DNA of 64,000 nucleotides from Candidatus Sumerlaeia bacterium (GTDB taxonomy: Bacteria > Sumerlaeota > Sumerlaeia > SLMS01 > JAHLLQ01): contig JAHCAW010000017.1 of assembly GCA_019634695.1 (NCBI GenBank), positions 7,322-71,321 of the forward strand, in the 5' to 3' direction. Each line of letters begins with the position of its first letter. The first letter of the stretch is position 1. This document shows positions 31,383 to 52,198 of the stretch, in pieces. The notes below the pieces were generated by a model. The model was not told where the DNA came from and did no database searches. It worked only from the letters and a program-made list of their open reading frames with translations. Made by a program: the position numbers and the translations under genes.

Positions 31383-31389
31383 GACGGCG

Positions 31390-32219: not shown

Positions 32220-32235
32220 GGAACCCGCCCGGCCC

Positions 32236-33132
32236 ATGAGTGCCACGCTGCCCACCAGCCACGACGCGCACGCGCCGGCCGCCCACGCCGACGCGCACGA
32301 CTCCCATGAGGGAGAGTTCGAGTACCTCGACTCGCTGAATCCCAAGCCGAGCCCGTGGCCGTTCCTGCTCGGCATCATCACCCTGCTCGTGCCGGTCGGC
32401 GGCTTGATTCTGATGTGGGGCGGGCCGGAACTCAGCCTGTTCGGCTGGATCGTGCTGGTGCTCGGCGGCGCGCTGTCGCTGGTGCCGACGTTCGGTTGGT
32501 TCCACAGCGTGGTGGTCGACAAGTGGGAGGGCCACTTCGGCGTCGTCGCCCAGGGCAACGATCTGGCGCTGGGCACGAAGCTCTTCTTCCTGTCCGAGAT
32601 CGCGATCTTCGGCTCGATCTTCGCCTATTACTTCGTCATGCGCCACCACTCGGCGCTGAATCCCGAGGTCGGCTGGCCGCTGCCGGGTTCGCCGCTGATC
32701 GACCAGATGCTGCCTGCTATCGGGCTGCTGATCCTGCTGACCAGTTCGTTCACGTGCGAGGTCGCGCACAAGGCCCTGATGAAGGGCAAGCGCGGCATGT
32801 GCAAGGACTGGATGCTGATCACGATGGCGCTGGGCCTCGTGTTCCTCTTCCTTCAGGGCTACGAGTGGGGATTCCTGATCCGCAACGAGGGGTTCACGGT
32901 CGGCAGCAACTGGTTCGGCACGGTGTTCTACGTGCTCACCGGCTTCCACGGCTTGCACGTCATCACCGGCCTCATCATGTTGATGATCGTCTACGGGCGT
33001 CTGGAGATCGGACACTTCACGGCCAAGCGTCACTTCTCGATGATGGCTGCCTCGTGGTACTGGCACCTCGTGGACGTCGTGTGGGTCTTCGTGTTCACGT
33101 TCATCTACTGCTTCCAGGGCGGCGGTCACTGA
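32236..33132 (+). CDS. coxC: cytochrome c oxidase subunit III
   Basis: COX3 signature segments WYWHLVDVVWVF and GFHGLHVITGLIML are present. The protein is 298 aa with 7 TM. Confidence 0.85.
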   Translation: MSATLPTSHDAHAPAAHADAHDSHEGEFEYLDSLNPKPSPWPFLLGIITLLVPVGGLILMWGGPELSLFGWIVLVLGGALSLVPTFGWFHSVVVDKWEGHFGVVAQGNDLALGTKLFFLSEIAIFGSIFAYYFVMRHHSALNPEVGWPLPGSPLIDQMLPAIGLLILLTSSFTCEVAHKALMKGKRGMCKDWMLITMALGLVFLFLQGYEWGFLIRNEGFTVGSNWFGTVFYVLTGFHGLHVITGLIMLMIVYGRLEIGHFTAKRHFSMMAASWYWHLVDVVWVFVFTFIYCFQGGGH

Positions 33133-36808: not shown

Positions 36809-37573
36809 ATGACGACGCAGCCCCAAGCCCATCCGCATCTGCTGGCCCGCGCGACGAAGCGCGTCTCGCGCGTCATCGCGTGGGGACTCGCTGCCACGCT
36901 GGGCCTCGTCGCTGCGACGACGGCCGCATGGGGGCTCGGCTATGCCGTCTACGCATGGCGCGGAAAGCCCAACAATCACGAGGCCCAGCAGCGCTTCATC
37001 GAGTCCAACGTCTTCCTCTCCAACGCCTTCACCCGACGAACGGATGGAGTGATCGCCGACCTGCGCCCCGGACTTCCCGAGAGGTTCTTCCTCAACAGCA
37101 CGCGCCATCGTTGGAGCGAGGCCAGCGGGGGATTCCTGCGCCATGGCCCCGCCGCGAGCGTGACCTACTGGAAGGCGCCCGACGGCATCGTCACGCGCTA
37201 CACGTTGGTGGTGCTCGACATCGAGAAGGAGCGACTGCAACTGGCCTCGGCACGCCTGCACATGACGCTGGGACCGAGCGATGCGACCGTCCTGCCGCCC
37301 GACCCGGCGACGCCCGGCGAGCTGCTTCTCGTCTGGCGCCAGCAGGACCGCATGGCCACGGCCGAGATTCGGCCCGAGAGCAATGGCACCTTCACGCTGG
37401 TCGTGCAGCAGATCCATCGCCTCGACCCGCGCTTCGCCCTGCGCCATGAGACGGGCGGTCTGCCGCGATGGCATCGTCATGCGGCGCGCATCGCGGAGCA
37501 ACTCGCCACGACATCAGAGGGGTCCGTGGGCTGGGACCGCGAGGATATACAGATTATCTGGGAACCTCGGTAG
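36809..37573 (+). CDS. hypothetical membrane-anchored protein
   Basis: ATG at 36809 (MTTQPQAHP...). It has a single N-terminal TM (VIAWGLAATLGLVAATTAAWGL). No recognisable domain. Confidence 0.4.
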   Translation: MTTQPQAHPHLLARATKRVSRVIAWGLAATLGLVAATTAAWGLGYAVYAWRGKPNNHEAQQRFIESNVFLSNAFTRRTDGVIADLRPGLPERFFLNSTRHRWSEASGGFLRHGPAASVTYWKAPDGIVTRYTLVVLDIEKERLQLASARLHMTLGPSDATVLPPDPATPGELLLVWRQQDRMATAEIRPESNGTFTLVVQQIHRLDPRFALRHETGGLPRWHRHAARIAEQLATTSEGSVGWDREDIQIIWEPR

Positions 37574-39014
37574 GCACAGTCGACGCCTGCGCGGACTCGT
37601 ATCCGGTGATCGTCACCAGGGCGAACAGCAGGCCGAACAGCAGGTACGTCTGCGGGAAGAAGAACGTGTCCTGCAGGAACATGGACAGGCCAAGCTGAAC
37701 GAACCCCATCGAGGCCGCCACGAGCCCGTTGTAGGCGAACGAGTCCTCGAGCCGTCGGGCGCGCTGCAACGTGCGCCACCACAGCAGCAGTGTGGCAATC
37801 ACGATGCCGGCGAAGAGCACGACGCCGACGATGCCGGTCTCGACGAGAATCTGCACGTAGCCGAGATCGACGAAGTGCTGGTTTCCCTTCTCGGCGTGGA
37901 TGACGTAGGTGAGTCCGCGGGCGCGATAGTCCCACCACTTGTCCTTGAACGTGTTGAGCCCGATGCCGGTCCAGGGGTGCTCGACGATCATGCGCTGGGC
38001 GGCGAGCAGTTTGTCGCGGCGGATCGTGAGCGACATGTCGCGGCCGGCCGGCGCATGCGGCGAGAAAAAGCGCTCGGCCAGCTTCATCGCGATGAACGGC
38101 GCGATCAACATGCCGCAGAGCGCCATCACGGCGAGAAGGCGGGCGCGATACTGGTAGCGGATCAGCAGGCCGCCCCACAGCAGCATCGCGCCGATGATGA
38201 CGGGCGACTGGCGGTTGCGCGTCAGCAGGCACAGCACGACCATGTAGCCGATCGCGACAAGGGCCACGCGTCGGGTCATGCGGCCTTTGGCCTCGACGTG
38301 CAGGAACAGGGCCCATGGCAGCGCCCAGGCGAGGTTGAACGCGTACTGGATCGCATTGCGCGAGACGCCGTTGATGCGGAAGTCGTGCAGCCACAGGCGA
38401 TTGTCGCTGAATTGCGGGAACAGGTCGCGGCGCAGGATGTACTCGAGCAGGCCGACGACGCTGAGCACGCAGGTGATTGTCACGATGGCCCTGAGCAGTC
38501 CCAGCAGGTCCTCGCGCGTGCGGAAGGTGCTCGCCGCGGCGAAGCAGACCACGAGGTACACGAGTTGGTTGTAGCTGCCCGTCGTGCCCGGCGCGCGCAG
38601 GACGAAGCTGCCGACCACCGCATAGATCGTGAACAGCGTCAGCAAGAGCCCCGATGCCGCCGGCGGCACGACGAAGCGTCGTCGGTAGAGCGCCGCGAGC
38701 CACGACAGCACGAACGCCGCAGCGCACACGCGGTTCAGCGAAACCGGCAGGCCGGGCAGCGTGATGGCCGTGCCGAAGAAGGTGGCGAAGTACATCGGCA
38801 GCGTGAAGCGCGGCCCCAGAACCACAAGCAGAGCGAGCACCAGTCCGCCGAACATCATGCGGATGCCCATGTCGGGCACGAACTTGATCGTGACGTAGAG
38901 ATAGAAGGCGACCGCGGCGAGGATGGCGACCAGAGCCAAGGTGACGCCGAGCTGGCGTCGCTCGGGCGTGTCGCGCAGCAGCGCGCGCAAGCGTTCGGCC
39001 GCCGCGGAGGTCAT
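37554..39014 (-). CDS. O-antigen ligase-like (Wzy_C / WaaL-family) polytopic membrane protein
   Basis: ATG at complement 39012-39014 (MTSAAAERLRALL...). It has 10-12 TM helices with a large periplasmic loop carrying the conserved RNRQS...H...GIGLNTF-type segment of O-antigen ligases. Its start overlaps the upstream gene stop (ATGA). Confidence 0.6.
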   Translation of the reverse strand: MTSAAAERLRALLRDTPERRQLGVTLALVAILAAVAFYLYVTIKFVPDMGIRMMFGGLVLALLVVLGPRFTLPMYFATFFGTAITLPGLPVSLNRVCAAAFVLSWLAALYRRRFVVPPAASGLLLTLFTIYAVVGSFVLRAPGTTGSYNQLVYLVVCFAAASTFRTREDLLGLLRAIVTITCVLSVVGLLEYILRRDLFPQFSDNRLWLHDFRINGVSRNAIQYAFNLAWALPWALFLHVEAKGRMTRRVALVAIGYMVVLCLLTRNRQSPVIIGAMLLWGGLLIRYQYRARLLAVMALCGMLIAPFIAMKLAERFFSPHAPAGRDMSLTIRRDKLLAAQRMIVEHPWTGIGLNTFKDKWWDYRARGLTYVIHAEKGNQHFVDLGYVQILVETGIVGVVLFAGIVIATLLLWWRTLQRARRLEDSFAYNGLVAASMGFVQLGLSMFLQDTFFFPQTYLLFGLLFALVTITGYESAQASTVPTEVPR

Positions 39015-39469
39015 GGCTCGCGCTCCCGATGCAGCAGCAGGGCCGCGACGAGATCGCCCGCTTCCGGCACGGGCACGTTCGCGGACAACTCCTCGGGTCG
39101 CCGCGGCGTTGCTTCCAGCCAGCAACGCACATCATGACCGGCCAGCGCATGAGCCAGCATCGGCGCCAGATCGGGCTCGAAGCAGACCACGTCGCGCACG
39201 CTGCGGCCGAAGACCGTTCGGCCGAGCACGACATCGACGCACGTCTCGATGCCGGGTTGCGGTCGTTCGACTTGGAAGAACGGATGCCGCGACGCCGGCG
39301 GATAGCCGATGCGAATGATTTCGGAGTCGGCGGTGTAGTCGGAGGGTACGCCGGCGGTGCCGTGCTCGATGCGAACGACGAGCAGCGGGCGGCCCACGGC
39401 GTCGGCGAGCAGGTCGCGCGCTTCGTCCCGCGCCCGCACGCCCTCCAGCAGCAGCACCCGCGTCCTCAT
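39011..39469 (-). CDS. hypothetical cytoplasmic protein, translationally coupled between two Wzy_C genes
   Basis: 152 aa. Its ATG overlaps the stop of the upstream Wzy_C-TPR gene (39466-39469) and its own stop overlaps the next ATG (39011-39014). Confidence 0.4.
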   Translation of the reverse strand: MRTRVLLLEGVRARDEARDLLADAVGRPLLVVRIEHGTAGVPSDYTADSEIIRIGYPPASRHPFFQVERPQPGIETCVDVVLGRTVFGRSVRDVVCFEPDLAPMLAHALAGHDVRCWLEATPRRPEELSANVPVPEAGDLVAALLLHREREP

Positions 39470-42400
39470 GGCGGCGGCGCCTCGGGGCCGAGCAGCGTGG
39501 CCAGTTCGTTGGCGCGGTTGCGCACGACGAGCGACTCCTGGCGGTCGGTGGTGCGCTGGGCGACGAAGTCATACAGGCGCAGCGCCTCGAGCAGCGCCTC
39601 GCGCAATGCAGGCGTGTCGGCGATGGGCAACGGCTCGTTGGCGCGGCGAGCGGCATCCTGGCGCGCGGCGAGTTTGCCCATGTCGGCGCGATGCGGCGCG
39701 AGCAGCGATTCCGCCAGCAGCACCCATGCGGCGTTCCACGGCGGCGGGTCCGCGATGGCAAGGCGGGCACGGGCGAACTCGGCCGCCACGTCGGGACGTC
39801 CGAGGATCGCTTCCAGATGAATGCCGGCATCGATCAGCGACTCGGGCTGTCGGGTGCCCTGCTCGAGCAGCGCATCGTATTCTCGGCGCGCGGCCTCGGG
39901 GTCCTGGCGTCGATCGGCTTCGGCCGCGGCGAGCAGGCGCCGCAGCATGTTGCGGTACTCCCGAGGTCGCCCTTCGAGGGCCAGCAGCGGATGGTCGAGT
40001 GCCGTGGTGGCCAGGTCGAAGCGCTGCTCGCGCAGGGCGATGAGCGCTTGCACGGCCGGACCGGTTGGATTCTCGATCTCGAGGAGCTTCTCGGCGAGCA
40101 GCCGCGCGGTCGGCAGGTCGCCATGCAGGGCGGCCGTCGTGGCGGCGTGCTCCCGGAAGGTGAGGTTCGCCGGGTCGATGCGCATCATCAGTCGGAAGCG
40201 TTCGTAGGAACGGCGATAGTCGAGCAGCGCACGTTGCTTCAGCGCATCCTTCAGGATCGTCTCGTTGAAGTAGAGCGGGTGGAAGTGGTAGAGCAGCCGA
40301 TAGAGATGATCGACCTCTGCCTCGGAGCGGGCACCGAAGCGTTCCTTCCACTCGATGAGGGTGCGGACCATGTCGGGGTCGCCCGGGTTCATCAGCACGG
40401 CGAACTCGAGGTCGGCCATGGCGGCGTGCAGGGCGGCGTCGCGTTCGATGCCCTCGGAAAACCGGTACGTCTGGTAGTGGATCAGGGCGCGCTGGTAGTA
40501 CGAGCCGTGGAAGCGGAACTCGTTGAGCGAGCGATTGAGGAGTTCGAGTGCCTCTCCGGCGGCGATCAGGCCGCGCCGACGCATATCCTCGGCGAAGGAA
40601 TTGTCGCCGGCACGCAGGGCGGCGGAACGCTCGCGGTCCAGGTTCGACGCTGCGATATAGAGCACGCGCGCGCCGTAGTAGTAGGGCTCGCCGTGCAGCG
40701 GTATCAGCCGGCGCGCGTCCTTCAGGTTCTGGTGGCCCTGCATGATGTACTGCGGATCGGGCGACTGTCCCTGCGCCTGAAGATCAAGGTAGGCATCCAT
40801 GGCACTCTGCGCGCGAAGACTCAAGGTGTTGGCGGCGAACCACTCGCAAGCCATCGCGGAGATGGCGACAACGGCCGCGGCGAGCAGCGGGACGAGCGCG
40901 AGCCATGCGCCGGCCAGCGCGGTCTGGAGCTTCGAGCCGTTCGTCGCCGGGCCCTTGCGGCGAGCGGGCGGCGGGGGAGGCTCGCCGGTGCCGGATGCGC
41001 GCTCGTCCAGCTTGGCCACGGGGATCAGCCACAGGCGGTCGCCCGCGCTCCACATGGCCAGCAGGAGCACAAGTGTCGCGGAAAGCGGCGCCACGCGCAG
41101 CGGAAAGTCGAGCAGGCAGTGCACCAGCATGGCGACCAGCGACGTCAGGATCGCCATCTGCAACGCGATGTGGCGTTGTCGGAAGGTGCGGCGCACCGTC
41201 TTCCATCCCGACAGCAGGATCGCCGTCACGCCCGCCAGCGCCAGCGCCAGCCCGAGCAGTCCGGTCTCGAACAACGTCTGCAAGTACTCGTTGTGCGCAT
41301 GGAAGGACTTGCGCGGCGTCGGCATGATGCGCGACTCGGGATTCGCCGCGTAGTACTCGCCCTGTGCCTGCGGGTAGACAAAGTGGAACGAGCCGAATCC
41401 CGTGCCGAGCAACGGATGGCTGCGGATCACCGGCCACGAGCAGACCGGAATGCGCAGGCGCGTCTCGGTCAGCAGGTGTTCCGGCGCCATGTGCTGGATG
41501 CGGACCGCCAGCGGCAGGTTCTTGCGATACAGCGGATTGGCCGGGTGCTTGATGAACTGGCTGAGTAGCAGCACCGCGAGCACGAGTGGAATCGCCACCC
41601 AGATCGCCAGCGGCGGCCGCAGGCCCGCGCGCCGCGCCAGCAGCGCCACCAGCGCCCCGAACGCCACCAGCAGAATCGGAATCACCGCGCGGCTCTGTGC
41701 CATGATCAGCGCCACCGCCATCACGGCCATCGCCCCCCACACCAGCGCCTTCACCCACTTGGCCATCCGGTCGCCGTGCGTCATCAGCAACGTCCACGCA
41801 ATCAACAGCGGCGCGATCATGAACGACGACAACGCCGTGTTGTGGCCGATGAACCCGGCAACGTCGTTGCGATAGTTGTCCGGTCCCCACTTCACCCAGA
41901 TCGCCGACAGGCCCGGCAGGCCCGCGTGCACGAGCACGGCGACCGCCGCCGCCACAACGCCCAGCCCGAGGATCAGGCCCAACAGCTTGTAGACCAGACG
42001 CCGCGTGCGAATCGCATCCTCGGCAACGACGAAGAACAGCAGGCCGCCCAGCACCTGCACCCATGCGGTCCATGCGTGATAGGTGCCCGCGCCCTGCGGC
42101 ATGGCCATGCGATGCAACCACGCGAAGAGCCCCGCGCGGGCACCCTCGAGCGCTTCGGCCTCCGGCGCGATCGGCACCGCGTCCACCGGCGGCTTCGGCG
42201 CCCAGCCCAGTCCGCTGAACGACACCAGCGCCAGCACCAGATACCCCACGATGCAGAGCAACGGGACCAGCCGCCCCCAGTCGCGCCGCGATGGCGTCGC
42301 CACCGGCGGCAGCACGGGCACGCGGAAGAAGGCCTCGTACAGGCGCGCCAACAGGTGCGCCGCGAACAGCGGCAGCGCCGCCAGCAGCCACACCGTCGTC

Positions 42401-42723
42401 TTGAGTTCGAGCACCGGCAGGCCCTGCGACAGGAACGGCGCGAAGTCCTGAATCAGCAGGGCGAAAGGATTCGCGCCCGGCACGACCGGTGCCCCGTCGT
42501 TCAGGCGCATCATCCAGTCGCTCAGCCGCACGAGCCACGACTCGGGAAGACTGAGGTGGTAGGCCAGAACGGCCCCCAGGAAGGCGGCCATCAGGGCCAG
42601 CTCGACGAACTTGCCGAGCACCAGCGGCACCGTGAGCCGCGCGGCGGGCTCGTCCGGCACGGCGCGCCGGCGCCGGACCCGCGTGGCGCTCGACGACCCC
42701 GCCTTCTTTCGGTGTTTCGCCAT
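39466..42723 (-). CDS. O-antigen ligase-like (Wzy_C) membrane domain fused to a C-terminal TPR-repeat domain
   Basis: ATG at complement 42721-42723 (MAKHRKKAGSS...). It has ~12 TM helices with the GTGFGSFHFVYP...HAHNEYLQTLFETGLLG ligase signature. A ~550-aa helical TPR-like tail follows. Confidence 0.65.
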   Translation of the reverse strand: MAKHRKKAGSSSATRVRRRRAVPDEPAARLTVPLVLGKFVELALMAAFLGAVLAYHLSLPESWLVRLSDWMMRLNDGAPVVPGANPFALLIQDFAPFLSQGLPVLELKTTVWLLAALPLFAAHLLARLYEAFFRVPVLPPVATPSRRDWGRLVPLLCIVGYLVLALVSFSGLGWAPKPPVDAVPIAPEAEALEGARAGLFAWLHRMAMPQGAGTYHAWTAWVQVLGGLLFFVVAEDAIRTRRLVYKLLGLILGLGVVAAAVAVLVHAGLPGLSAIWVKWGPDNYRNDVAGFIGHNTALSSFMIAPLLIAWTLLMTHGDRMAKWVKALVWGAMAVMAVALIMAQSRAVIPILLVAFGALVALLARRAGLRPPLAIWVAIPLVLAVLLLSQFIKHPANPLYRKNLPLAVRIQHMAPEHLLTETRLRIPVCSWPVIRSHPLLGTGFGSFHFVYPQAQGEYYAANPESRIMPTPRKSFHAHNEYLQTLFETGLLGLALALAGVTAILLSGWKTVRRTFRQRHIALQMAILTSLVAMLVHCLLDFPLRVAPLSATLVLLLAMWSAGDRLWLIPVAKLDERASGTGEPPPPPARRKGPATNGSKLQTALAGAWLALVPLLAAAVVAISAMACEWFAANTLSLRAQSAMDAYLDLQAQGQSPDPQYIMQGHQNLKDARRLIPLHGEPYYYGARVLYIAASNLDRERSAALRAGDNSFAEDMRRRGLIAAGEALELLNRSLNEFRFHGSYYQRALIHYQTYRFSEGIERDAALHAAMADLEFAVLMNPGDPDMVRTLIEWKERFGARSEAEVDHLYRLLYHFHPLYFNETILKDALKQRALLDYRRSYERFRLMMRIDPANLTFREHAATTAALHGDLPTARLLAEKLLEIENPTGPAVQALIALREQRFDLATTALDHPLLALEGRPREYRNMLRRLLAAAEADRRQDPEAARREYDALLEQGTRQPESLIDAGIHLEAILGRPDVAAEFARARLAIADPPPWNAAWVLLAESLLAPHRADMGKLAARQDAARRANEPLPIADTPALREALLEALRLYDFVAQRTTDRQESLVVRNRANELATLLGPEAPPP

Positions 42724-42878
42724 GACTCCGCGGCCCGCAAGGCCCTCCGTCGGCGCACGATTCCAGCCCCCCGCGAGGCATGCCAAGCGAAAAGCCCCGC
42801 CCCACCAGAGCCGTTGACACCCGCCGCCGCGGACGACTTGCCTTGGGCAGCCGTTCGGGGTGCCCAGGAGGAAGGACC

Positions 42879-43631
42879 GTGAAACTCAGGAAGAAGTGCG
42901 CCATCGTGGTCGGGGCCTCCTCGGGTATCGGCGCCGCGGTGGCACGGCGTCTTGCCCGCGCCGGCTGGCACCTGGCCCTCGTGGCCCGCCGTCAGGAGGC
43001 GCTCAACCAAGTTGCGGCCGACATTGCCCGTCTGCCGGGTGCGCACCCCGCCCTCGTCTATCCGCACGATGTCACGAACTACGACGAGGTGCCGGCGCTG
43101 TTCGACCGGATTGCCGACGATCTGGGCGGGCTCGAACTCGTCCTGTATGCCTCGGGCGTGATGCCTGACGTCGGGCCGGAGGAGTTCGACTTCGCCAAGG
43201 ACCGCGCGATGGTCGAGGTGAACCTGCTGGGCATGATCGCGTGGCTGAATCAGGCGGCGGACCTGTTCGCGCGCCTGGAGGGCGGCACGATCGCCGGCAT
43301 CGGTTCGGTGGCCGGCGACCGCGGCCGGCGCGACCGCCCGGGTTACAACACCAGCAAGGGCGCCCAAGCCATCTTCCTCGAGTCGCTGCGCAATCGCTTG
43401 GCGCCGCGCAACGTGCGCGTCGTCACAATCAAGCCCGGCCCCGTCGCCACGCCGATGACCGAGGGGCTCGGACAGATGCCTTTCATGATTTCCGCCAACG
43501 AGGCCGCACGCCAGATCGTGCGCGCGCTCGAGTCGTCCCGCTCCACCGTCTACGTCCCGCATCGCTGGGCTGTCATCATGCTCGTCATCCGGCACATCCC
43601 GTCGTTCCTGTTCCGACGGCTGGGAATCTGA
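42879..43631 (+). CDS. short-chain dehydrogenase/reductase, DprE2-like (polyprenyl-phospho-2-keto-pentose reductase homolog)
   Basis: GTG start with AGGAGGAAGGA SD. Rossmann motif VVGASSGIGAAVARRLA. The catalytic YxxxK is present as Y-N-T-S-K. The C-terminal tail IMLVIRHIPSFLFRRLGI is near-identical in pattern to the M. tuberculosis DprE2 C-terminus (MMVLRHIPRSIFRKLPI, recalled from memory). Confidence 0.7.
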   Translation: MKLRKKCAIVVGASSGIGAAVARRLARAGWHLALVARRQEALNQVAADIARLPGAHPALVYPHDVTNYDEVPALFDRIADDLGGLELVLYASGVMPDVGPEEFDFAKDRAMVEVNLLGMIAWLNQAADLFARLEGGTIAGIGSVAGDRGRRDRPGYNTSKGAQAIFLESLRNRLAPRNVRVVTIKPGPVATPMTEGLGQMPFMISANEAARQIVRALESSRSTVYVPHRWAVIMLVIRHIPSFLFRRLGI

Positions 43632-43639
43632 GGCCCGCG

Positions 43640-45118
43640 ATGTCCGTCTCCGCGCCCGCAAGGCTGGACGCCCGCACGCTGTTGGGTCCGCGCCACTGGG
43701 CGCGCGTCGAGGGCTGGGGCATGGCGGTCTCTGCGCTTGGGCATCTTGTGCGCCCGCGCGACATCGACGAACTGCGCGCCCTCTTCGCCTTCGCCCGCGA
43801 AACAGGCACGCCCGTGACGCTGCGCGGCGGCGGGCGCAGCTACGGCGACGCGGCCATCGGCCAAGGCTGTCTGATCCTCGACCTGACGGCCATGAATCGC
43901 ATCCTCTCCTGGGATCCGGAGACCGGCATCGTCGATGCCGAACCCGGCGTCACCATCGAGCAACTCTGGAAGCGTATCGTCCCCGACGGCTGGTGGCCCG
44001 CCGTCGTCAGCGGCACGATGTTCACCACGATGGGCGGCTGTGCCGCCATGAACATCCACGGCAAGAACAACTACCGCGTCGGCCCGTTCGGCGACCAGGT
44101 GCTCGAGTTCGATCTGCTGCTGCCCAACGGCGAGCTGCTGACGTGCGACCGCGAGCGCCACGCCGACCTGTTCCATGCCGCCATCGGCGGCTTCGGCATG
44201 CTCGGGTGCTTCACGCGCATCCGCCTGCGCACGAAGAAGGTCCACTCCGGCAACCTTGCCATCGAGGCCTTTCCGACGACGTCGATCCCGCACATGATCG
44301 AGGAGTTCGAGGACCGCGTGCCGGACGCCGACTATCTTGTCGGATGGATCGATTGCATCGCGGGCGGTCGCTCGTCCGGGCGTGGGATCGTGCATCGCGC
44401 GGATTACCTGCGCGAGGGCGTCGATCCGGTGCCGCGCGAATCACTCGTCCTGCGCGCGCAGGAACTGCCGTCGAAAGTCTTCGGCCTCCCCAAGTCGCTG
44501 CTCTGGTGGCCGCTCGGCCTGTTCATCAATGACACGGGCATGCGCGCCGTGAACGCGGCGAAGTTCCATGCCGGCCGCCTGCTGCCCGTCGGCGCCGTCT
44601 ATCCGCAGGCGCACGCCGCCTTCGCCTTCCTGCTCGACTATGTGCCCAACTGGAAGTGGGCCTACAAGCCCGGCGGCCTGATCCAGTACCAGAGCTTCAT
44701 CCCGCGCGCGAACGCCGCGCGCACGTTCGAGACGCTGCTGCGCATGAGCCGCAAGGCCGGCCTGCCCGCCTACCTCGGCGTCTTCAAGAAGCATCGCCCC
44801 GACCCCTTCCTGCTGACGCACGCGGTCGATGGCTACTCGCTCGCACTCGACTACCGCGTGACCGCCGGCAACCGCGAGGCCCTGTGGCGGCTGTGCCATC
44901 GGATGGACGAAGTCGTTCTCGCGGCCGGCGGGCGCTTCTACTTCGCCAAGGATCTGACGCTGCGGTCGCGCACGGCTGCCCGTTTCCTGCCGCGCGAGAA
45001 CCTCGACACCTTCGTCGCGCTCAAGCACCGATGCGATCCGGGCAACGTCCTGCAGACCGATCTCTCGCGTCGCCTCTTCGCGTCGCACTTTGCCGACACC
45101 GGGCAACAGGATCCATGA
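43640..45118 (+). CDS. FAD-linked oxidase, DprE1-like (polyprenyl-phospho-ribose 2'-oxidase homolog)
   Basis: The FAD-binding PCMH region has a GGGRSYGD motif, as in DprE1's GLGRSYGD. Other matches are NIHGKNNYRVGPFGDQV, as in DprE1's DIHGKNHHSAGSFGNHV, and GGRFYFAKD, as in DprE1's GGRLYTAKD. Confidence 0.7.
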   Translation: MSVSAPARLDARTLLGPRHWARVEGWGMAVSALGHLVRPRDIDELRALFAFARETGTPVTLRGGGRSYGDAAIGQGCLILDLTAMNRILSWDPETGIVDAEPGVTIEQLWKRIVPDGWWPAVVSGTMFTTMGGCAAMNIHGKNNYRVGPFGDQVLEFDLLLPNGELLTCDRERHADLFHAAIGGFGMLGCFTRIRLRTKKVHSGNLAIEAFPTTSIPHMIEEFEDRVPDADYLVGWIDCIAGGRSSGRGIVHRADYLREGVDPVPRESLVLRAQELPSKVFGLPKSLLWWPLGLFINDTGMRAVNAAKFHAGRLLPVGAVYPQAHAAFAFLLDYVPNWKWAYKPGGLIQYQSFIPRANAARTFETLLRMSRKAGLPAYLGVFKKHRPDPFLLTHAVDGYSLALDYRVTAGNREALWRLCHRMDEVVLAAGGRFYFAKDLTLRSRTAARFLPRENLDTFVALKHRCDPGNVLQTDLSRRLFASHFADTGQQDP

Positions 45119-45555
45119 ATACGCTCTCGCTCTACTTCGCCTACGGGTCGAACATGAGCAGCGCGCAGATGGCTGCGCGTTGTCCCGGCGCCCGGCCGGA
45201 CGGCGGGGCCGAGCTGGCCGATTGGCGTTTCCTCATCAACAACCGCGGCGTCGCCACGATCGCACCGGCCCCGGGCCAGCGTGTTCTCGGTGTGCTCTGG
45301 ACGTGTACCGCCGTTCACCTGCGCGCCCTCGACGGATTCGAAGGCGTGCAGCTCGGCCTCTATCGCCGCGAGCGCGTCGCCGTCCGGCGCGTCGATGACG
45401 GCACGACAGTCGAGGCAGTCGCCTACATCGAAGACAACGTCGCGCCCGGCCCGCCGCGGGCAGGCTATCTCGAGCGCATCCTCGCCGGTGCCGCCGAGCA
45501 TGGACTCGATGCCGCCTATCGCGTCTGGCTCGAGTCTTTTGCCGACGCGGATTGA
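45115..45555 (+). CDS. gamma-glutamyl cyclotransferase-like (GGCT/AIG2 family) protein
   Basis: N-terminal YFAYGSNM motif is diagnostic of the GGCT fold. The ATG overlaps the DprE1-like stop (ATGA). Confidence 0.65.
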   Translation: MNTLSLYFAYGSNMSSAQMAARCPGARPDGGAELADWRFLINNRGVATIAPAPGQRVLGVLWTCTAVHLRALDGFEGVQLGLYRRERVAVRRVDDGTTVEAVAYIEDNVAPGPPRAGYLERILAGAAEHGLDAAYRVWLESFADAD

Positions 45556-46997
45556 GGCTCGCCCTCTTCCTTCCGCCGCAGGATAAACAACTGGTTGCGG
45601 GGTGCCTTGCGCAGATCCTCGCGCGCGGCCTCCTCCTGTGGCGTCAGGACCTCCCCGGTCGCGCACACGTCGAAGGCCGACGCGAGATGCTCGAAACCGG
45701 TCAGGCGGAACAGCCATCGCCACTGCCAGTACGTCAGCACGAAGACATGGTGCATGACGCCGTGACTGTAGTAGGACATGGCCTGCTCGACCACGTTGCA
45801 TGTGATGGGATCGACCTTGAAGTCGAAGGTGTCCGTCTCGGGATCGTAGGCGTCGGGGAAGTCGTCCGCGACGTTTCCGTCGATCGGGACCGGCAAGTTG
45901 ACGAACAGGTGGCCGCCGGGCTTGAGGATGCGGCGAACCTCGCGCAGCAGCAGGAACGGCACGATCGAGTGCTCGAGCACGTGACTCGTCAGCACCGCAT
46001 CGAAGGTTCCGGAGGCGACGGGGATCGCGTGCATCTCGGCCTCGATGGTCGTCATTCCGCGGCGCCGGCACTCCTCCAACTCGGATGGATTGCCGGAGAT
46101 CGCCGTCACGTCGAACCCGGCCGCGAGGAAGTGATGGCCGATGAAGCCGGGACCGGCGCCGATGTCGGCGAGCCGCAAACCTCTCGGCTCGGCGACGGGC
46201 ATGTTGTCGCGGAACCACTTCCACCAACCTGGCAGAGTGCCCTTGAAGTAGGCGTCGAAGTTCTCCGGGCGCATCCACTCCGGCGACTGTGGGAAGGAGG
46301 AGCGCACCGATCCGCGCTGGAAGTAGGTCTCGAGTTCCACGCGAACCAGTTCATCGGCGTCGCTGGCCGTGTCGAGCAACAGCTTGCGAATGCCGGAAGA
46401 CCTGAGAAGGTAGCGCGCGAGGCGCTGACCGCCGAGCGCGGCGAACAGGCGGCCGCGTCGCCCGCGTCGGTCCTCCTGCTGGGCCTCGATGAGTCGCGTG
46501 CGAAAGTTCGTGCTTCGAGGAAACAGGCGCATCGCCTCGGCATGAAGCGCGGCCCGCTCCCGCGCCGACAGAATGCGCGAGCTGGCGTCGCTGAGATGCT
46601 TCCAGACCTCCTCGACTCCGGAGCAGCGCCGCGCAAGGACGTGCATGGCGCGCACCGTCTCGGCCGTCGGGCCGTCGCGCAACGTGCGGATGCGCAGCAG
46701 CCAGAATCCGGGCTCGGGATTCTCGGGCTGGATTTCCTCGAGCTTGCGGTACAGGGCTTCCGCCGCTGTCAGGTCGCCGCTGCCGAGATGCAGCCACGCG
46801 AGCAGGCCGATGGCGCCGGCATCCGCCGGTTGGGCGCCGCAATGGCATTGCAGCAGCGCGATGGCCTCGGAGACGAGCCGTGCTTCCAGCGCGACGCGAG
46901 CCTGTGAGACAAGATCAGTCAACCGGACTGCTCCCTCTCCTCCGACGACGGGACGATTGTCCCGTGGCCTGGGCCTGCCTGCGGAGTCGAAGGGCAT
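45516..46997 (-). CDS. class I SAM-dependent methyltransferase with N-terminal helical (TPR-like) region
   Basis: Only the C-terminal 494 aa of the 1634-aa track ORF is real. It starts at MPFDSAGRP... (complement ATG 46995-46997). Motif I is LADIGAGPGFIGHHFLAAGFDV and the post-I region is ILKPGGHLFV. The upstream 1100 aa of the ORF is an Arg-rich shadow of the kinase gene. Confidence 0.55.
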   Translation of the reverse strand: MPFDSAGRPRPRDNRPVVGGEGAVRLTDLVSQARVALEARLVSEAIALLQCHCGAQPADAGAIGLLAWLHLGSGDLTAAEALYRKLEEIQPENPEPGFWLLRIRTLRDGPTAETVRAMHVLARRCSGVEEVWKHLSDASSRILSARERAALHAEAMRLFPRSTNFRTRLIEAQQEDRRGRRGRLFAALGGQRLARYLLRSSGIRKLLLDTASDADELVRVELETYFQRGSVRSSFPQSPEWMRPENFDAYFKGTLPGWWKWFRDNMPVAEPRGLRLADIGAGPGFIGHHFLAAGFDVTAISGNPSELEECRRRGMTTIEAEMHAIPVASGTFDAVLTSHVLEHSIVPFLLLREVRRILKPGGHLFVNLPVPIDGNVADDFPDAYDPETDTFDFKVDPITCNVVEQAMSYYSHGVMHHVFVLTYWQWRWLFRLTGFEHLASAFDVCATGEVLTPQEEAAREDLRKAPRNQLFILRRKEEGEPQSASAKDSSQTR

Positions 46998-47086: not shown

Positions 47087-50000
47087 TCAGACGCCGAGGA
47101 CCTCGCGTCGCGCCTGCTTGAGCGCCTCGACGATGTCCTCGCCCTTCTCCCAGCGGTCTTCCTTCTCTTTGGCGAGGCACTTGGCGATGATGTTCCAGAG
47201 CGCATCCGGGCAGTTCTCCGGGCGCTGGGGCTGCTGGTGCATGTGCTGGTAGGCAAGGTCGCCCTGGATGAAGGGCGGCCGGCCGGCGACGAATTCGTAG
47301 AGCATGATGCCGAAGGAATACAGGTCTGCGCGGTTGTCGACGGCGATGCCCTGCACCTGCTCGGGCGACATGTACAGCGGCGTGCCGATGACGGCGCCCA
47401 CCATCGTGCCCTCGCCCGAGTTCATCGTCGAGTCCAGCATCTTGGCGATGCCGAAGTCGGTGACCTTCACCTGGTTGGTGCTGGTCAGCATGATGTTGGC
47501 GGGCTTGATGTCGCGGTGCACGATGCCGAGCCGATGCGCGTAGCCCAGCGCGTCGGCGATGTCGATCGCGTACAGGAACAGGTCCTCCATCGACAGCTTG
47601 CCTTCGGTCTTCACGCGCTTCTTGAGGTCCGAGCCGTCGACGTACTCCATCGAGATGTACTTGCGGCCCATTTCCTCGCCGATGTCGTGGATGCGCACGA
47701 TGTTGGGGTGCGACAGGCGGCGGGCGTTGCGGGCCTCGATCTTGAAGCGGCGCACCGCCTCCGGGTTGTTCGACATGGCGTCGGGCAGGATCTTGAGGGC
47801 GACGACCTCCTCGAGCTCCTTGTCGCGGGCGCGGTAGACGATGCCCATGGCGCCGCGGCCCAGCTCGTCCAGCAGTTCGTAGCGGCGCTTGGCGTCCTCG
47901 CTCATCTGCTGAACGATGCTCGTCTTCTCGAAGGCCATCGGGTCGCTCGTCGAGCCCGACAGCATCTCGAAGCGCGTCTTTACGTCCTTGTAGTCGATAT
48001 CGGCGGCGAAGAGCTGGCGATATACGGTCTTGGCGCCCACAAGGTCCTTCTTGCCCTCGTAGCGCTGCGCCAGATCGTACAGCAACTCCTTCGTTTCCTC
48101 GTCCACCACCAGCTTCTTGAACTCCTGCAGGGCCAGGTCGAGCATGCCCTTGTTCGTGAAGCACTTGCCGAGCATCTTGATCGACTCGGCTTCCCAGCGG
48201 TAATCCTGGGCCGTCTTCTGGAAGCAGCCGATCGCGCTGTCGTATTCCTGGATCATGTAGTACAGGCGGCCGAGGCGGAAGCGCACCTCCACTTCGTCCT
48301 TCTGCGTCAGGATGCGCTCGTAGACGTCGGCGAGCGCGCGGATCACCTCGGGGCTGTTGGGCTGCAGCTTGTAGGCCTTCTCGAGCGAGGCGCGCGCCCG
48401 CGCCATGTCCCCGGTCGCGACGAGGATCCGCGCCTGGCTCTGGAGCGCCGGCAGGTACTGGCCCTCCTTCGACAGGATCTTGTCGAGCGCGCCAAGCACG
48501 TTCTGCGCGTGGTTCGGGTTGTTGCTGTAGATCCAGTCGAGCTGTTCCATCGCCTCGCGCAGGTGCCCGTAGGCCACCAGCAGCTCGCACAGGAACCAGC
48601 GCACGCGCATTGCCTCGGGGTGCTGTTGCAGCATCTGGCCGATGTGGCGCAGCAGCGTCTCCTCCGCGCCCGGGCAGGACCGCATGACGTTCTGGTAGCT
48701 TTCGACGGCCTTGACCGTGTCGTTGCGTTCGAGGTGCACGCGCGCCAGCGCCAGGTGCAACTCCGGCACGTCGCTGCGCACCTGGAGTGCCCGCTGGTAC
48801 AGGCGCGCGCACTCGTCGTCCGCGCGTCCCTTGTGCGCGTAGGCCATCGCCAGGTGGAACATGGCCTCCTGATCGTTCGGGTTGCGCTGCAGGATTGCGG
48901 TATACTCGCGCACGGCCTCGTCGAGCTTGTTGTCGTAGAGGCTGGCGAGGGCGATCAGGCGCTTGAGCTCGCCGTCGTCGGGATGGTGGCGCAGCAAGGC
49001 CTGCGCCGTGCCGAGCGCGTCCTGATAGCGGTTCGCCTTGATGTAGGACCGGACGAGCATCGCACCGATGTTGCGGTCGGCGGGATCGTTGACCAGATGT
49101 GCCTCGTAGACGGGGATGGCTTCGCCGCCCTCGTCCTCCTTGCGCTCGAGCACAGTTGCCAGCGCCTTGACGAGCTGGGCGTTGTCGGGTTCGGCGCGCA
49201 GGGCCTCGCGATAGACGCGCTCGGCCTCGGGGCGATAGACCCCGGTTGCCATGTAGGAGCGCGCGAGCTGGCGCGAGTACTGGGCCTCGCCGAAGCCGAG
49301 CTGGAACAGCGTCTCGATGACGTCGATCGCCAGGTCGTGCGTGCCCGCCAGGCGTGCCGTCTCGGCCAGCGCCTTGAGCGTCACTGCATCGTTGGGATTC
49401 GCGCGCCGCGAGCGGTGATAGATGTCGACGGCGGGCTTCGTGAAGTTGCCTGCCCGGAAGTGAATCTCCGCCAGCGTGCGTAGCAACTCGGCGTCCTCGG
49501 GCTGCAGGGCCAAGGCGCGTTGGAAGGCCTCCTGCGCGGCTTGGTCCCCGCGGCCTTCCACCAGGTAGCACTGCGCCAGGAGCTGGATCGCGCGCTCGTT
49601 GGACGGCTCGACCTGAAGCGCCGACTTCGCCTCCTCGACCGCGCGTCCCACCTCGTTCTTCTGCATGTAGATCGTGCACAGGTGGCAGTAGGCCGGCACG
49701 TAGGAGCGGTTGTACTCGAGCACGCGATGGCAGAGCGACTCGACTTCGGCGTCGCCCTTCTTGGCGTCGATGCACGAATCCAGGTAGGCTTCGAGGAAGC
49801 GCGAGTCCTCCTGGCGTCCCTGGAACTGCTGGTGATAGACGGGCAGGGCCTTTGCCGTGCGGTTGTTCGTTTCGAGATACACGTCGCACAGGGCGGCATA
49901 GACGTGGTTGGCGGTCAGTCCGGCGCGCAGGGCGGCACGCAGGCGCTTGGCCGCCTCGTCGAAGTTGCCGGCCTCCTTGTGGCACATGCCGATGGCGTAC

Positions 50001-51994
50001 TCGAGCACCTGCGGCTCGGGGAAACTCTTGAGGGCGGCCTCGAAGACCGCGCGGGCTTGGGCGTCGCGCTTCTCGCCCTGCAGCAGCGCCCGTGCGTAGC
50101 AGTGCAGCAGGTTCGGGTTCTCCGGGTCCTTCTCGTGCGTGCGCCGGTAGATGTCGATCGTGCGCGCGTCGAAGTTCTTGTTCGACATGTAGACCATCGC
50201 CAACGTCGCGACGATCTTCTGGCTGCGGGGCTTGCGCGCCAGCAGGCGCTCGTACAGCACCTCGGCCTCGTCCATGCGACCCTTGGAAACCGATGTGCGC
50301 GCGCGGCGCTCCAGATGCGCCAGATACACGAAGCGGCCAACAACATACGTCAGCAGCAGCAGGACCGCCAGCACCCCGACGCCCGCAGCGATCAGCCAGA
50401 CCAGATTTCGCCGAATCCACATCTGGCGATACTGCGACTGGTACTGGACGTTGAAGGGGTCGTAGTCCCGTAGCGTGGCCGCCGCCGCCAGCGCCTCGTC
50501 CCAGTCCTTGGCCTCACGGGCCGTATTGAACCGGTCAGCGATCTTGGCCACTTCGGCCTCGAGCCGCGCCGCGCGCTGGCTCTCGCGTTGCAAGTAGACT
50601 AGGTCCACCCGCGCGTTGCGTCGCGGCGTCGCCGCCCGTGTCATCCACGGCGACAGCCATGGAGAAAGCGATGGCCACTCCGGCGAGCGATCGACTGAAA
50701 ACGTCCGTCCCGTGTCGATACCGAACAACATCCCCTGCAATGTCATCCCGATCAGGTGGTACTTGAAGGCGTTGCGTCCGCCCTCCTGCTCCGGCACGCC
50801 GATCACCGGCATCGTGTGGCCCACGAACTGGCCGATCGAGACGACCTGCGGCTCGTCCAGCGCCGGCACTCCTTGGAACCAACTGCTTGTCTCCAGCATC
50901 CGCACCTGCGTGCCCTGCGCGAACGCCAGCACCGGGAAGCCGCCATGGTGGTTCCACAGCACGGACAACTGCGAGTTGATCCCCGCGAACGATGTCCGGT
51001 CGCCGCGCAGCATCGCGCGCCTGGACACGTCGATCGCGACCAGACCGGCCGAACCCAGACCCTGGAAGATCAGCGCCTCGCCCGGGCCGCGATCCTTCGG
51101 CATCACCAGCACCGGATCGCCCGTCACCGCCCCGCCGCCACCTGTCGCGAACCGATTCAGCACGTCCAGCCGGTCCGTCGCCGGATTGTGGGTCCGGATT
51201 TCGATGTCGCCGTTGGCCAGCGTGAAGACGAGTTCGTCGCGCCCGTTGCCGGTAAGGTCCGCCAGCAACACCGTTGTGGCGATGCCGTGTTGCTCGGAGA
51301 TATTGTATTGGGTGGCACGGCCGGTGAACGACTCGATCAGCAGAAGCTTGCCGTCGCTGGTCGGCACCGCGATGTCGATCTGTCCGGAGATTCTCGGCGA
51401 GCCCAGCGAGAGCGGAGCGGCGGCCTTCGAGCCGGTGCGCACCGGCTCCCAGTAGGACTTCGCCTGCCGTGCGTCGTCCAGATAGACCGAGATCACCTGT
51501 CCGCCCTGATCGGCCAGCACCACGATCTCGGTGAAGGTGCCCGGGCTGCCCGGCAACGGCAGGTAGACCACCGTCGGCGATTCGACGAACGAGTTTGTCG
51601 AGACCTGTGCCTCGGCGATCGGAGTAAGGTTTCCGCCGTTGAGGAAGACGACACGGCCGTCCTCGGTGCCGAAGGCGATGTCGAGCGACGAGTCACGGGC
51701 GAAGTCGCCCACCACCGGGGCCGTCAGCGACCGGCGCGCCTCGTCCACCGCCTGCAGGATCATCTCACCCGACGTCGCGTCGAACACCGCGATGCGGCCC
51801 CCGACGTCCGTCGCGATGATCTCGGGCACCTCGTTGCGCACCAGATTGGCGGCGATAACCGCGTTGGGGGTATCCAGCGGCGTCTTGCGTCGCGTGAAGG
51901 TCTCACGCGGCTCGTCCGCCCATGCGCCGAACCCTCCCGCAACGAGCCCCGCCGCCAGCAGACTCGCGCCTCGCCGAACCTGTATGCCCATCAC
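47087..51994 (-). CDS. giant transmembrane Ser/Thr protein kinase (~1635 aa): signal peptide, extracellular FG-GAP/VCBS-like beta-propeller region, one TM, ~800 aa of TPR repeats and a C-terminal Hanks kinase domain
   Basis: N-terminal signal MMGIQVRRGASLLAAGLVAGGFGAWA. Repeats such as TDVGGRIAVFD and LADLTGNGRDELVF are FG-GAP-like. TM is LVWLIAAGVGVLAVLLLLTYVV. Many TPR-like helices follow. The kinase motifs at the C-terminus are GRGAMGIVYRA, VALK, HRDIKPANIML, DFGIAK and SPEQ. Confidence 0.8.
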   Translation of the reverse strand: MMGIQVRRGASLLAAGLVAGGFGAWADEPRETFTRRKTPLDTPNAVIAANLVRNEVPEIIATDVGGRIAVFDATSGEMILQAVDEARRSLTAPVVGDFARDSSLDIAFGTEDGRVVFLNGGNLTPIAEAQVSTNSFVESPTVVYLPLPGSPGTFTEIVVLADQGGQVISVYLDDARQAKSYWEPVRTGSKAAAPLSLGSPRISGQIDIAVPTSDGKLLLIESFTGRATQYNISEQHGIATTVLLADLTGNGRDELVFTLANGDIEIRTHNPATDRLDVLNRFATGGGGAVTGDPVLVMPKDRGPGEALIFQGLGSAGLVAIDVSRRAMLRGDRTSFAGINSQLSVLWNHHGGFPVLAFAQGTQVRMLETSSWFQGVPALDEPQVVSIGQFVGHTMPVIGVPEQEGGRNAFKYHLIGMTLQGMLFGIDTGRTFSVDRSPEWPSLSPWLSPWMTRAATPRRNARVDLVYLQRESQRAARLEAEVAKIADRFNTAREAKDWDEALAAAATLRDYDPFNVQYQSQYRQMWIRRNLVWLIAAGVGVLAVLLLLTYVVGRFVYLAHLERRARTSVSKGRMDEAEVLYERLLARKPRSQKIVATLAMVYMSNKNFDARTIDIYRRTHEKDPENPNLLHCYARALLQGEKRDAQARAVFEAALKSFPEPQVLEYAIGMCHKEAGNFDEAAKRLRAALRAGLTANHVYAALCDVYLETNNRTAKALPVYHQQFQGRQEDSRFLEAYLDSCIDAKKGDAEVESLCHRVLEYNRSYVPAYCHLCTIYMQKNEVGRAVEEAKSALQVEPSNERAIQLLAQCYLVEGRGDQAAQEAFQRALALQPEDAELLRTLAEIHFRAGNFTKPAVDIYHRSRRANPNDAVTLKALAETARLAGTHDLAIDVIETLFQLGFGEAQYSRQLARSYMATGVYRPEAERVYREALRAEPDNAQLVKALATVLERKEDEGGEAIPVYEAHLVNDPADRNIGAMLVRSYIKANRYQDALGTAQALLRHHPDDGELKRLIALASLYDNKLDEAVREYTAILQRNPNDQEAMFHLAMAYAHKGRADDECARLYQRALQVRSDVPELHLALARVHLERNDTVKAVESYQNVMRSCPGAEETLLRHIGQMLQQHPEAMRVRWFLCELLVAYGHLREAMEQLDWIYSNNPNHAQNVLGALDKILSKEGQYLPALQSQARILVATGDMARARASLEKAYKLQPNSPEVIRALADVYERILTQKDEVEVRFRLGRLYYMIQEYDSAIGCFQKTAQDYRWEAESIKMLGKCFTNKGMLDLALQEFKKLVVDEETKELLYDLAQRYEGKKDLVGAKTVYRQLFAADIDYKDVKTRFEMLSGSTSDPMAFEKTSIVQQMSEDAKRRYELLDELGRGAMGIVYRARDKELEEVVALKILPDAMSNNPEAVRRFKIEARNARRLSHPNIVRIHDIGEEMGRKYISMEYVDGSDLKKRVKTEGKLSMEDLFLYAIDIADALGYAHRLGIVHRDIKPANIMLTSTNQVKVTDFGIAKMLDSTMNSGEGTMVGAVIGTPLYMSPEQVQGIAVDNRADLYSFGIMLYEFVAGRPPFIQGDLAYQHMHQQPQRPENCPDALWNIIAKCLAKEKEDRWEKGEDIVEALKQARREVLGV

Positions 51995-52198
51995 CGCCTC
52001 AGTACCCCGTTTCGAAGGCTTCCCTGGCCCAAATGCCCCGCCGCGCCCGACGAATGACCACTTCTCGGGATTGGCCGACGGCCCCGGGGGGCCTCGCCGT
52101 GAAAGGCACGTCCAGCCTCGGGATTCCGGACCCTGTGCTCAACCGGATTAATGCCCTTCGGCACACCGGCAACCGCGTCCCTCCCGACGGCGCCGCCC

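Follow-up and report, generated by a model that had tools for sequence, protein, structure and literature searches.

A 64,000-nucleotide stretch of the Candidatus Sumerlaeia bacterium assembly GCA_019634695.1 (contig JAHCAW010000017.1; the whole stretch is referred to here as the window) carries three co-directional genes that follow one another head to tail on the + strand, i.e., a short-chain dehydrogenase/reductase (SDR; 42879..43631), a FAD-dependent oxidase (43640..45118) and a protein with the gamma-glutamylcyclotransferase (GGCT) fold (45115..45555). The first two probably constitute a two-gene operon for a two-step epimerase of the DprE2/DprE1 type, which would convert a ribose lipid donor to the arabinose form. 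This assignment builds on homology, fold, active-site conservation, gene pairing and operon links in relatives. All three reading frames lie where an initial annotation of the same DNA had placed them. Related loci in other genomes are denoted by L and a number.

Oxidase

The initial annotation had described the oxidase as DprE1-like, and DprE1 is the best family by NCBIfam, by PDB sequence search and by Foldseek. The NCBIfam model for DprE1 (NF053785) scores 280 bits over positions 4-447 of 449, and other FAD oxidase models reach at most 60 bits, over the FAD domain only. In the PDB, the match to DprE1 has E=4e-52 and spans residues 13-479; the next families follow at about 1e-14 (cytokinin dehydrogenase) and again cover only the FAD domain. 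An AF2 model based on 18 homologues (pLDDT 80.4, pTM 0.84) displays the two-domain VAO/PCMH fold with a DprE1-type substrate domain, and ranks 1-49 of a Foldseek search of the PDB are all DprE1, with TM-scores of 0.73-0.79 when normalised to the query and 0.83-0.90 when normalised to the target. The FAD motif GRSYGD, the DIHGKN-like block and the GGRxYxAKD motif noted earlier are present in the sequence as GGGRSYGDA, NIHGKNN and GGRFYFAKD.

The oxidase belongs to a clade of stand-alone SDR-oxidase cassettes, hereafter the window clade, whose oxidases share 49-90% identity and whose genomic contexts come mostly from metagenome bins. Twenty-two DprE1 active-site positions were mapped by alignment with the M. 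smegmatis enzyme and compared with Nocardia, alphaproteobacterial and 21 clade sequences. Identical residues occupy 17 of the 22 positions in the mycobacterial, Nocardia and alphaproteobacterial enzymes and in all 21 clade sequences, and these include Y60, H132, K134, Q334, Q336, K367 and K418; the roles of the DprE1 active-site residues have been described (PMC5659129). Best matches to the GlcD or vanillyl-alcohol oxidase families and a loss of DprE1 residues were looked for as well; neither was seen, and the key residues are kept.

Reductase

The reductase is a classical SDR (Pfam adh_short, E=2e-41) with the motifs GASSGIG and Y156-N-T-S-K160, and the catalytic Tyr and Lys are invariant in 27 SDRs of the clade. 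Over the Rossmann core, generic SDRs match it as well as DprE2 does. Among NCBIfam models, PRK07102, an unnamed SDR family, scores 206 bits (cut-off 267) and the DprE2 model NF053786 scores 126 bits over positions 11-252 of 252. When a profile of the 27 clade members was compared with the PDB, DprE2 (21gq_C) ranked second at 122 bits, with profile positions 9-251 aligned to DprE2 11-253, and was the sole match that extended through the C-terminal tail.

This hydrophobic tail, VIRHIPSFLFRRLGI, can be aligned with those of DprE2 from M. tuberculosis (VLRHIPRSIFRKLP) and Nocardia (VLRHIPRPIFRRLPI), and the pattern ...[VI]R.IP..[IL]F[RK][RK]L.. is common to the clade SDRs, Nocardia DprE2 and the SDRs that partner the DprE1-like oxidases of Rhizobium and Tateyamaria. 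The earlier description of the reductase tail as DprE2-like is thus borne out by the alignment of the tails and by an end-to-end match to DprE2. Neither a signal peptide nor a transmembrane (TM) helix is predicted in the oxidase or the SDR, which fits a presumed site of action at the cytoplasmic face of the membrane.

Relatives linked to a ribosyl-lipid synthase

The closest relatives with informative genomic context are operons of Armatimonadota (L096) and of related metagenomic contigs (L093 and L099-L116) in which the pair is preceded by a UbiA-type ribosyl-lipid synthase, the phosphoribosyl pyrophosphate:polyprenyl-phosphate phosphoribosyltransferase (PPPRS). In L093, the UbiA, SDR and oxidase genes form an operon with overlapping stops and starts; its oxidase is 41% identical to that of the window, and the two NCBIfam models for decaprenyl-phosphate phosphoribosyltransferase give its UbiA protein 217 and 195 bits (cut-offs 234 and 207). 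The same PPPRS-SDR-oxidase operon is found in a Chthonomonas sp. genome (GCA_016788425.1; L096), and a metagenome scan with PPPRS relatives returned it in 11 of the 20 closest loci, with four more showing PPPRS-SDR before the contig ends.

The PPPRS-linked operons have the same SDR-then-oxidase order as the window. Their oxidases are 38-51% identical to that of the window and 44-53% identical to other clade members, their SDRs are 46% identical to the window SDR and carry the DprE2-type tail as well, and their oxidases share the pocket signature H369/S385/A387 (mycobacterial DprE1 numbering) with the window clade. In a rough neighbour-joining tree, i.e., a quick distance tree, the PPPRS-linked group adjoins the window clade, and the actinobacterial and alphaproteobacterial DprE1 sequences lie on another branch. 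Given the linked operons, the identity range, the shared pocket and the tree, we regard the PPPRS-linked members as bracketing the window clade. They support a role of the window pair as a polyprenyl-phospho-ribose 2'-epimerase, and the proposal in the initial annotation of a ribose-to-arabinose conversion on a lipid donor gains support from such close relatives, which are translationally coupled to a UbiA of the decaprenyl-phosphate phosphoribosyltransferase type. The difference is that in the Armatimonadota operons the PPPRS is translationally coupled upstream of the pair, whereas the window and every other locus of its clade lack it.

The surroundings of the Armatimonadota operon are constant: in L093, L096, L115 and L116 it is flanked on one side by a divergent glmS and on the other by a DHH phosphoesterase-truB-DUF2752 group, whose DHH gene overlaps the stop codon of the oxidase. 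Just past glmS, L096 carries an exopolysaccharide set (Bac_transf, a Wzy_C-like protein, exosortase EpsH/EpsI and GT1).

Distribution, pairing and gene order

An exact look-up gave no entry for the window oxidase; the nearest oxidases, 90% (L001), 75% (L003) and 66% identical, come from metagenome bins of Sumerlaeota/BRC1. Relatives of the oxidase fill 5,712 database clusters at E<=1e-10; at E<=1e-30 there are 1,122 clusters (50% level), whose identity falls gradually from 54% to 28%. In a scan of one genome per species, at least 566 genomes carry copies that are 51-66% identical; the carriers belong to Sumerlaeota, Armatimonadota, Planctomycetota, Chlorobiota/Kapaibacteria/Ignavibacteriae, Bacteroidota and Chloroflexota, with a few proteobacterial bins. 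Outside the mycolata, where the initial annotation had taken such a pair to be rare, it thus occurs in at least 566 genomes from six or more phyla, and functional Gram-negative pairs have been published. Identity does not track taxonomy, some Sumerlaeota copies being 52-54% identical to that of the window and copies from Planctomycetota and Chthonomonadales up to 59-60%, which suggests that the cassette may have spread laterally.

Across about 80 genome loci, the SDR is the sole conserved neighbour of the oxidase. Of the 73 loci with enough upstream sequence, 68 have the SDR directly ahead of the oxidase in the same orientation, and the two proteins diverge in parallel from the actinobacterial and alphaproteobacterial pairs. 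Those pairs (Nocardia for the actinobacteria) are ordered oxidase then SDR, whereas the order is reversed in the window clade; the inverted order remarked on in the initial annotation is real and is the rule for the clade. Besides the SDR, no neighbour occurs in more than 12 of the loci, and those that recur (metallophosphatase, sulfatase, ThuA, NUDIX, EamA and fumarase) are lineage-specific and of no evident relevance. L011, L012 and L021 have no SDR adjoining the oxidase, and none was detected anywhere in the 15-kb locus of L011.

The pair is hence a common cassette of many uncultured phyla, a sound but fairly ordinary finding. DprE1/DprE2 homologues outside the actinobacteria are already known from the literature, and many members of the clade have been labelled decaprenylphospho-ribofuranose 2-oxidase by the Joint Genome Institute (JGI). 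A literature search on DprE1 in Planctomycetes, Sumerlaeota and the other carrier phyla found nothing relevant, and the large subfamily described here is apparently unstudied. Newly described are also the reversed gene order and distinctive pocket of the clade, the lost linkage to PPPRS and a tie, specific to Sumerlaeota, to Wzy_C-TPR proteins.

Alternative substrates and reactions

Several observations weigh against the assignment of the pair as a ribose-to-arabinose epimerase. With 280 and 126 bits, the oxidase and the SDR stay below the respective NCBIfam equivalog cut-offs of 500 (NF053785) and 250 (NF053786), and because both do, they are best described as family members in the broad sense, not as certified equivalogs. 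The pocket departs from that of mycobacterial DprE1 at five positions (S228V, Y314A, F369H, N385S and C387A). The 64-kb window holds no PPPRS, no GtrA-type flippase and no clear GT-C, and a PPPRS of the Rhizobium type, GtrA and the two membrane proteins that lie downstream in the Rhizobium cluster were found within 10 kb of the pair in none of the roughly 80 clade loci. Armatimonadota hold both PPPRS-linked and unlinked versions of the pair, so that the unlinked clade might be a paralogue that acts on another substrate. Glycosyltransferases of the GT2 family adjoin the pair in two loci, as detailed below, and enzymes of the Wzy_C family, which are encoded beside the pair in the window, are not usual users of polyprenyl-monophosphate sugars.

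As to the scores, the oxidase of the PPPRS-linked locus L093 also reaches just 278 bits against NF053785, and the cut-off of this model therefore appears to be tuned to actinobacterial sequences. As to the pocket, Cys387 is the covalent benzothiazinone site and is dispensable for catalysis; its counterpart in the window oxidase is Ala402, the alanine is invariant across the clade, and natural Ser and Ala variants at this position occur among actinobacterial DprE1 enzymes (PMC6015584). The only UbiA gene of the window (30498..31382) was considered as a PPPRS and rejected, as it encodes heme o synthase CtaB (310 bits) and lies inside the cox cluster. No MATE gene was present among the window genes scanned.

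A generic FAD oxidase and a generic SDR whose substrate is some soluble sugar or alcohol, with no connection to lipid-linked glycan donors, would go with the scores below the equivalog cut-offs, with the generic SDRs that are the top NCBIfam and PDB matches of the reductase, and with the unrelated housekeeping genes that flank the pair in most phyla. We nevertheless consider this explanation scarcely credible, since other VAO-family enzymes match the N-terminal FAD domain only, at E ~1e-14 or weaker, whereas in the window oxidase the substrate domain is conserved throughout, as are the catalytic residues of DprE1; furthermore, the SDR bears a DprE2-type tail, and close relatives of the pair are operonic with PPPRS.

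It is also conceivable, if unlikely, that the pair performs the same chemistry on another lipid-linked sugar, e.g., a polyprenyl-phospho-hexose that a GT2 synthase forms from a nucleotide sugar, and produces an epimer other than arabinofuranose. In L075 (7738..11386), a fusion of a sugar-1-phosphate nucleotidyltransferase with a GT2 runs in the same direction as the pair and overlaps the SDR start, and in L009 (6725..11455) a related GT2 and a PMT_2/ArnT-like GT-C stand divergently beside it; the best NCBIfam matches of these GT2 proteins are AglJ, dolichyl-phosphate hexose transferase, PpgS and ArnC. However, the GT2 link is confined to 2 of about 80 loci. The loss of PPPRS linkage in all of these loci and the coexistence of linked and unlinked versions in Armatimonadota also speak for a different sugar, but the mycobacterial PPPRS gene is likewise unlinked to dprE1/dprE2 (Rv3806c versus Rv3790/Rv3791), the PPPRS-linked relatives have the same pocket residues H369/S385/A387, and sequence identity declines towards these relatives without a break. 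A link to hopanoid side-chain epimers was considered as well and dropped, as there is no evidence for it in the window.

Proposed reaction and comparison with known systems

For the ribose-to-arabinose epimerase that we favour, we infer substrate and product from the established DprE1/DprE2 reaction scheme (PMC11127046). A PPPRS encoded elsewhere in the genome would make polyprenyl-phospho-ribose-5-phosphate, which would then be dephosphorylated. The flavoenzyme would oxidise the 2'-hydroxyl of the resulting polyprenyl-phospho-beta-D-ribofuranose to a 2'-keto intermediate, which the SDR would reduce with NAD(P)H from the opposite face to yield polyprenyl-phospho-arabinofuranose, and the lipid-linked sugar, once flipped, would be the donor in glycosylation outside the cytoplasm. 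That the two genes are so closely spaced agrees with a putative stoichiometric complex of their products; interaction of DprE1 with DprE2 has been reported for the mycobacterial and Pseudomonas pairs (bioRxiv 10.1101/2020.04.19.049825).

With DprE1 (Rv3790) and DprE2 (Rv3791) of M. tuberculosis and M. smegmatis, the window pair shares the combination of a VAO/PCMH FAD oxidase and a classical SDR with a hydrophobic C-terminal tail, full-length homology (28-29% and 26-27% identity, respectively), adjacent genes and the same catalytic residues. It differs in the reversed gene order, in the five pocket substitutions listed above, including alanine in place of Cys387, and in the lack of a neighbouring GtrA-like gene, arabinosyltransferase (AftA/Emb) or PPPRS, and the host is a Sumerlaeota-like bacterium and not an actinobacterium.

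Outside the Actinobacteria, a DprE1/DprE2 pair has been validated in P. aeruginosa Pa5196/PA7 (PsPA7_6245-6249), where it serves pilin arabinosylation, and the DprE1 of this organism is functional at 33% identity to the M. tuberculosis enzyme (bioRxiv 10.1101/2020.04.19.049825). The identity of the window oxidase to M. tuberculosis DprE1 is in a similar range. The Pseudomonas pair is clustered with PPPRS, a phosphatase and a GtrA-like gene and is used by the GT-C-like TfpW, whereas the window pair stands alone and in the opposite order.

In the plasmid clusters of Rhizobium sp. N324 (pRspN324b) and Tateyamaria omphalii, the genes run UbiA (HAD-fused), GtrA, FAD oxidase, SDR and two membrane proteins. 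These alphaproteobacterial oxidases and SDRs are 33-34% and 34-36% identical to those of the window, and V228 and A387 are common to both groups of oxidases; here, however, the oxidase precedes the SDR inside a complete cluster for donor synthesis and flipping, and the window clade forms a separate branch.

A three-component pentofuranose system, consisting of PPPRS, a MATE flippase and a GT-C, with auxiliary epimerases, has been described for Citrobacter youngae O1/O2, and the Gram-negative glycans containing arabinofuranose that were examined come with DprE1/DprE2 homologues (PMC11127046). The logic is the same, in that an epimerase modifies the lipid-linked ribofuranose before the sugar is transferred in the periplasm, and L011 has a MATE gene beside the oxidase. 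None of the three components is identifiable beside the window pair, though, and the neighbours are of the Wzy_C type and not GT136 GT-C proteins.

If the assignment is correct, lipid-linked arabinofuranose, or a close epimer, would be made in many poorly known phyla, beyond mycobacteria, a few proteobacteria and rhizobia. Sumerlaeota, Armatimonadota, Planctomycetota and other phyla would then be likely to have arabinosylated surface glycans that are as yet unexplored, and the SDR-then-oxidase order together with the H369/S385/A387 pocket could serve as a marker for them. For the window itself, the outcome is mainly a solid functional annotation.

Wzy_C proteins and other membrane or glycan neighbours

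Divergently upstream of the SDR lies a gene for a large membrane protein of the Wzy_C (O-antigen ligase/polymerase-like) family (39466..42660, - strand; Pfam Wzy_C, E=1e-20; ~13 TM helices), the start of which is possibly as far upstream as 42786. Its C-terminal domain is weakly TPR-like, a PDB search giving just weak TPR matches in the tail. A second Wzy_C membrane protein of 486 aa with ~9 TM helices (37554..39014, - strand; Pfam Wzy_C, E=3e-14) accompanies it, and between the two genes a protein of 148 aa without Pfam match (39011..39457, - strand) is kept in L001 and L003 only.

The Wzy_C pair stands beside the cassette in four Sumerlaeota lineages. It is divergent and upstream in window/L001 and in L003, and in L011 and L013, from two further Sumerlaeota species, it follows the oxidase co-directionally; the large Wzy_C gene is accompanied by the second one in all four. 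Since the linkage survives a rearrangement, it argues for a functional tie of the Wzy_C pair to the cassette within Sumerlaeota, and we infer that the two proteins are plausible partners of the epimerase, with a role in the assembly or attachment of the glycan to which the sugar is transferred. L011 carries, on one strand and in this order (2453..8916), adjacent genes for a MATE transporter, the oxidase, the Wzy_C-TPR protein and the second Wzy_C protein; MATE proteins are the flippase class proposed for lipid-linked pentofuranoses (PMC11127046).

A further possibility, to which we give little credence, is that the stand-alone cassette of Sumerlaeota, Armatimonadota, Planctomycetota, Chloroflexota, Bacteroidota and Chlorobiota is a paralogue of the PPPRS-linked epimerase with a function of its own, which in Sumerlaeota feeds giant Wzy_C-TPR transferases. 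If so, either Wzy_C-fold enzymes would accept a polyprenyl-monophosphate furanose as donor or these phyla would make a lipid-linked sugar epimer that is new.

The initial annotation had named nearby GT-C-like and Wzy_C membrane proteins as candidate users of the donor. Two Wzy_C genes are recognised by Pfam, but the adjacent GT-C-like gene does not stand: the + strand open reading frame (ORF) 45552..46907 is a shadow ORF without Pfam match, and the opposite strand encodes a TPR-methyltransferase (45516..46922, - strand). The sole GT-C-like candidate in the window is a 790-aa protein with ~11 TM helices (33101..35473, - strand), 7.4 kb away, which matches YfhO below threshold (E=0.0024) and gave no match in a PDB sequence search.

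Genes for methyltransferases dependent on S-adenosylmethionine are recurrent neighbours of the cassette in Sumerlaeota. That of the window and L001 encodes the TPR-methyltransferase and is convergent with the GGCT gene, the two overlapping by 40 nt; in L012 (8958..9926) such a gene lies directly upstream of the oxidase, and in L011 (1052..2155) it lies two genes upstream. The recurrence may hint at a methylated glycan.

GGCT-fold gene

The third gene of the unit encodes a gamma-glutamylcyclotransferase/AIG2-fold protein of 146 aa that exceeds the Pfam thresholds for both AIG2_2 (PF13772; 64 bits, cut-off 27) and GGACT (PF06094; 51 bits, cut-off 22.8). It matches human GGCT with E=1.6e-14, and the FAYGSN motif and the Glu of EGV, the counterpart of the catalytic Glu98 of the human enzyme, are aligned. 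The GGCT start codon (ATG at 45115) overlaps the oxidase stop (TGA, 45116-45118), and the ATGA overlap joining the two genes, as originally noted, can be read directly at 45115-45118.

Only the window, L001 and L002 have the GGCT gene beside the pair, i.e., loci in which the oxidase is at least 90% identical. It is absent from the Sumerlaeota relatives with 75% and 66% identical oxidases (L003 and L005) and from all other of the ~80 loci; a 168-aa gene that follows the L003 oxidase was considered as a diverged GGCT and shows no similarity. The 232 homologues of GGCT occur in many phyla as small genes standing on their own, and the protein diverges faster than the pair, with 80% identity to its L001 counterpart compared with 90% for the oxidase. 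Because the coupling is confined to the closest relatives, GGCT need not have a role in the chemistry, and we read it as a probable recent, lineage-specific passenger of the operon. The initial annotation, which saw no obvious role for it and left it unexplained, can be extended in this sense.

That GGCT is instead a functional third component of the pathway, e.g., one that processes a glycan or lipid intermediate modified with gamma-glutamyl groups or amino acids, is very unlikely given its absence from the other cassette loci, its faster divergence and its stand-alone homologues, despite the retention of the ATGA overlap in L001 and L002 and the intact catalytic Glu and YGSN. The nearest other GGCT homologue (60% identical; L177, 6001..10339) does lie beside a lipid-carrier glycosylation module of PAP2, PMT_2 (GT-C), GT2 and VTT/DedA-like genes, but this is a single case and may be a coincidence.

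Locus layout and other genes of the window

The window has a G+C content of ~67%, so that its raw ORF lists are full of shadow ORFs; the three genes come from a codon-usage gene call and Pfam scans. The SDR gene (42879..43631, + strand) encodes 250 aa from a GTG start, 6 nt downstream of a Shine-Dalgarno-like AGGAGGA (42866..42872, + strand) read from the sequence. This start is supported by the AGGAGGA element and by the same 250-aa gene being called in L001, L003 and L008. The spacer between the SDR and the oxidase (43632..43639, + strand), given as 9 nt in the initial annotation, is 8 nt (ggcccgcg) by direct reading and is consistent with a tight co-translation of the pair. The oxidase gene (43640..45118, + strand) encodes 492 aa between an ATG start and a TGA stop and matches Pfam FAD_binding_4. 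A promoter and terminator scan of 42500-47200 gave nothing above chance.

A complete respiratory block occupies 17728..33132 (+ strand), in which the genes for Alternative Complex III (multihaem cytochrome, molybdopterin/Fe-S subunit, NrfD, ActD and cytochrome c) are followed by a caa3-type oxidase set (COX2, COX1, CtaA, CtaB, CtaG and COX3). A giant ORF of 2,352 aa (9978..17036, - strand) has a right-handed beta-helix region as its sole recognisable part, and a GH43-like gene (7299..8384) lies upstream of it. Downstream of the locus, signalling genes (47087..55592, - strand) include a Ser/Thr kinase of 1,635 aa with a long TPR array, which is kept in L001, and an FHA-GAF-histidine kinase. Further on, a stand-alone adenylation-carrier-thioesterase protein resembling a nonribosomal peptide synthetase (57183..59822, + strand; 879 aa) is encoded next to an HMGL-like gene and upstream of infB. 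Finally, an amidohydrolase and M16 peptidase gene pair lies at 2416..7208 in the window, ~35 kb from the cassette, and at 1..3132 in L003, a few kb from the Wzy_C genes; the different distances suggest that insertion or rearrangement, involving the respiratory block among other genes, has set the two lineages apart in this region.

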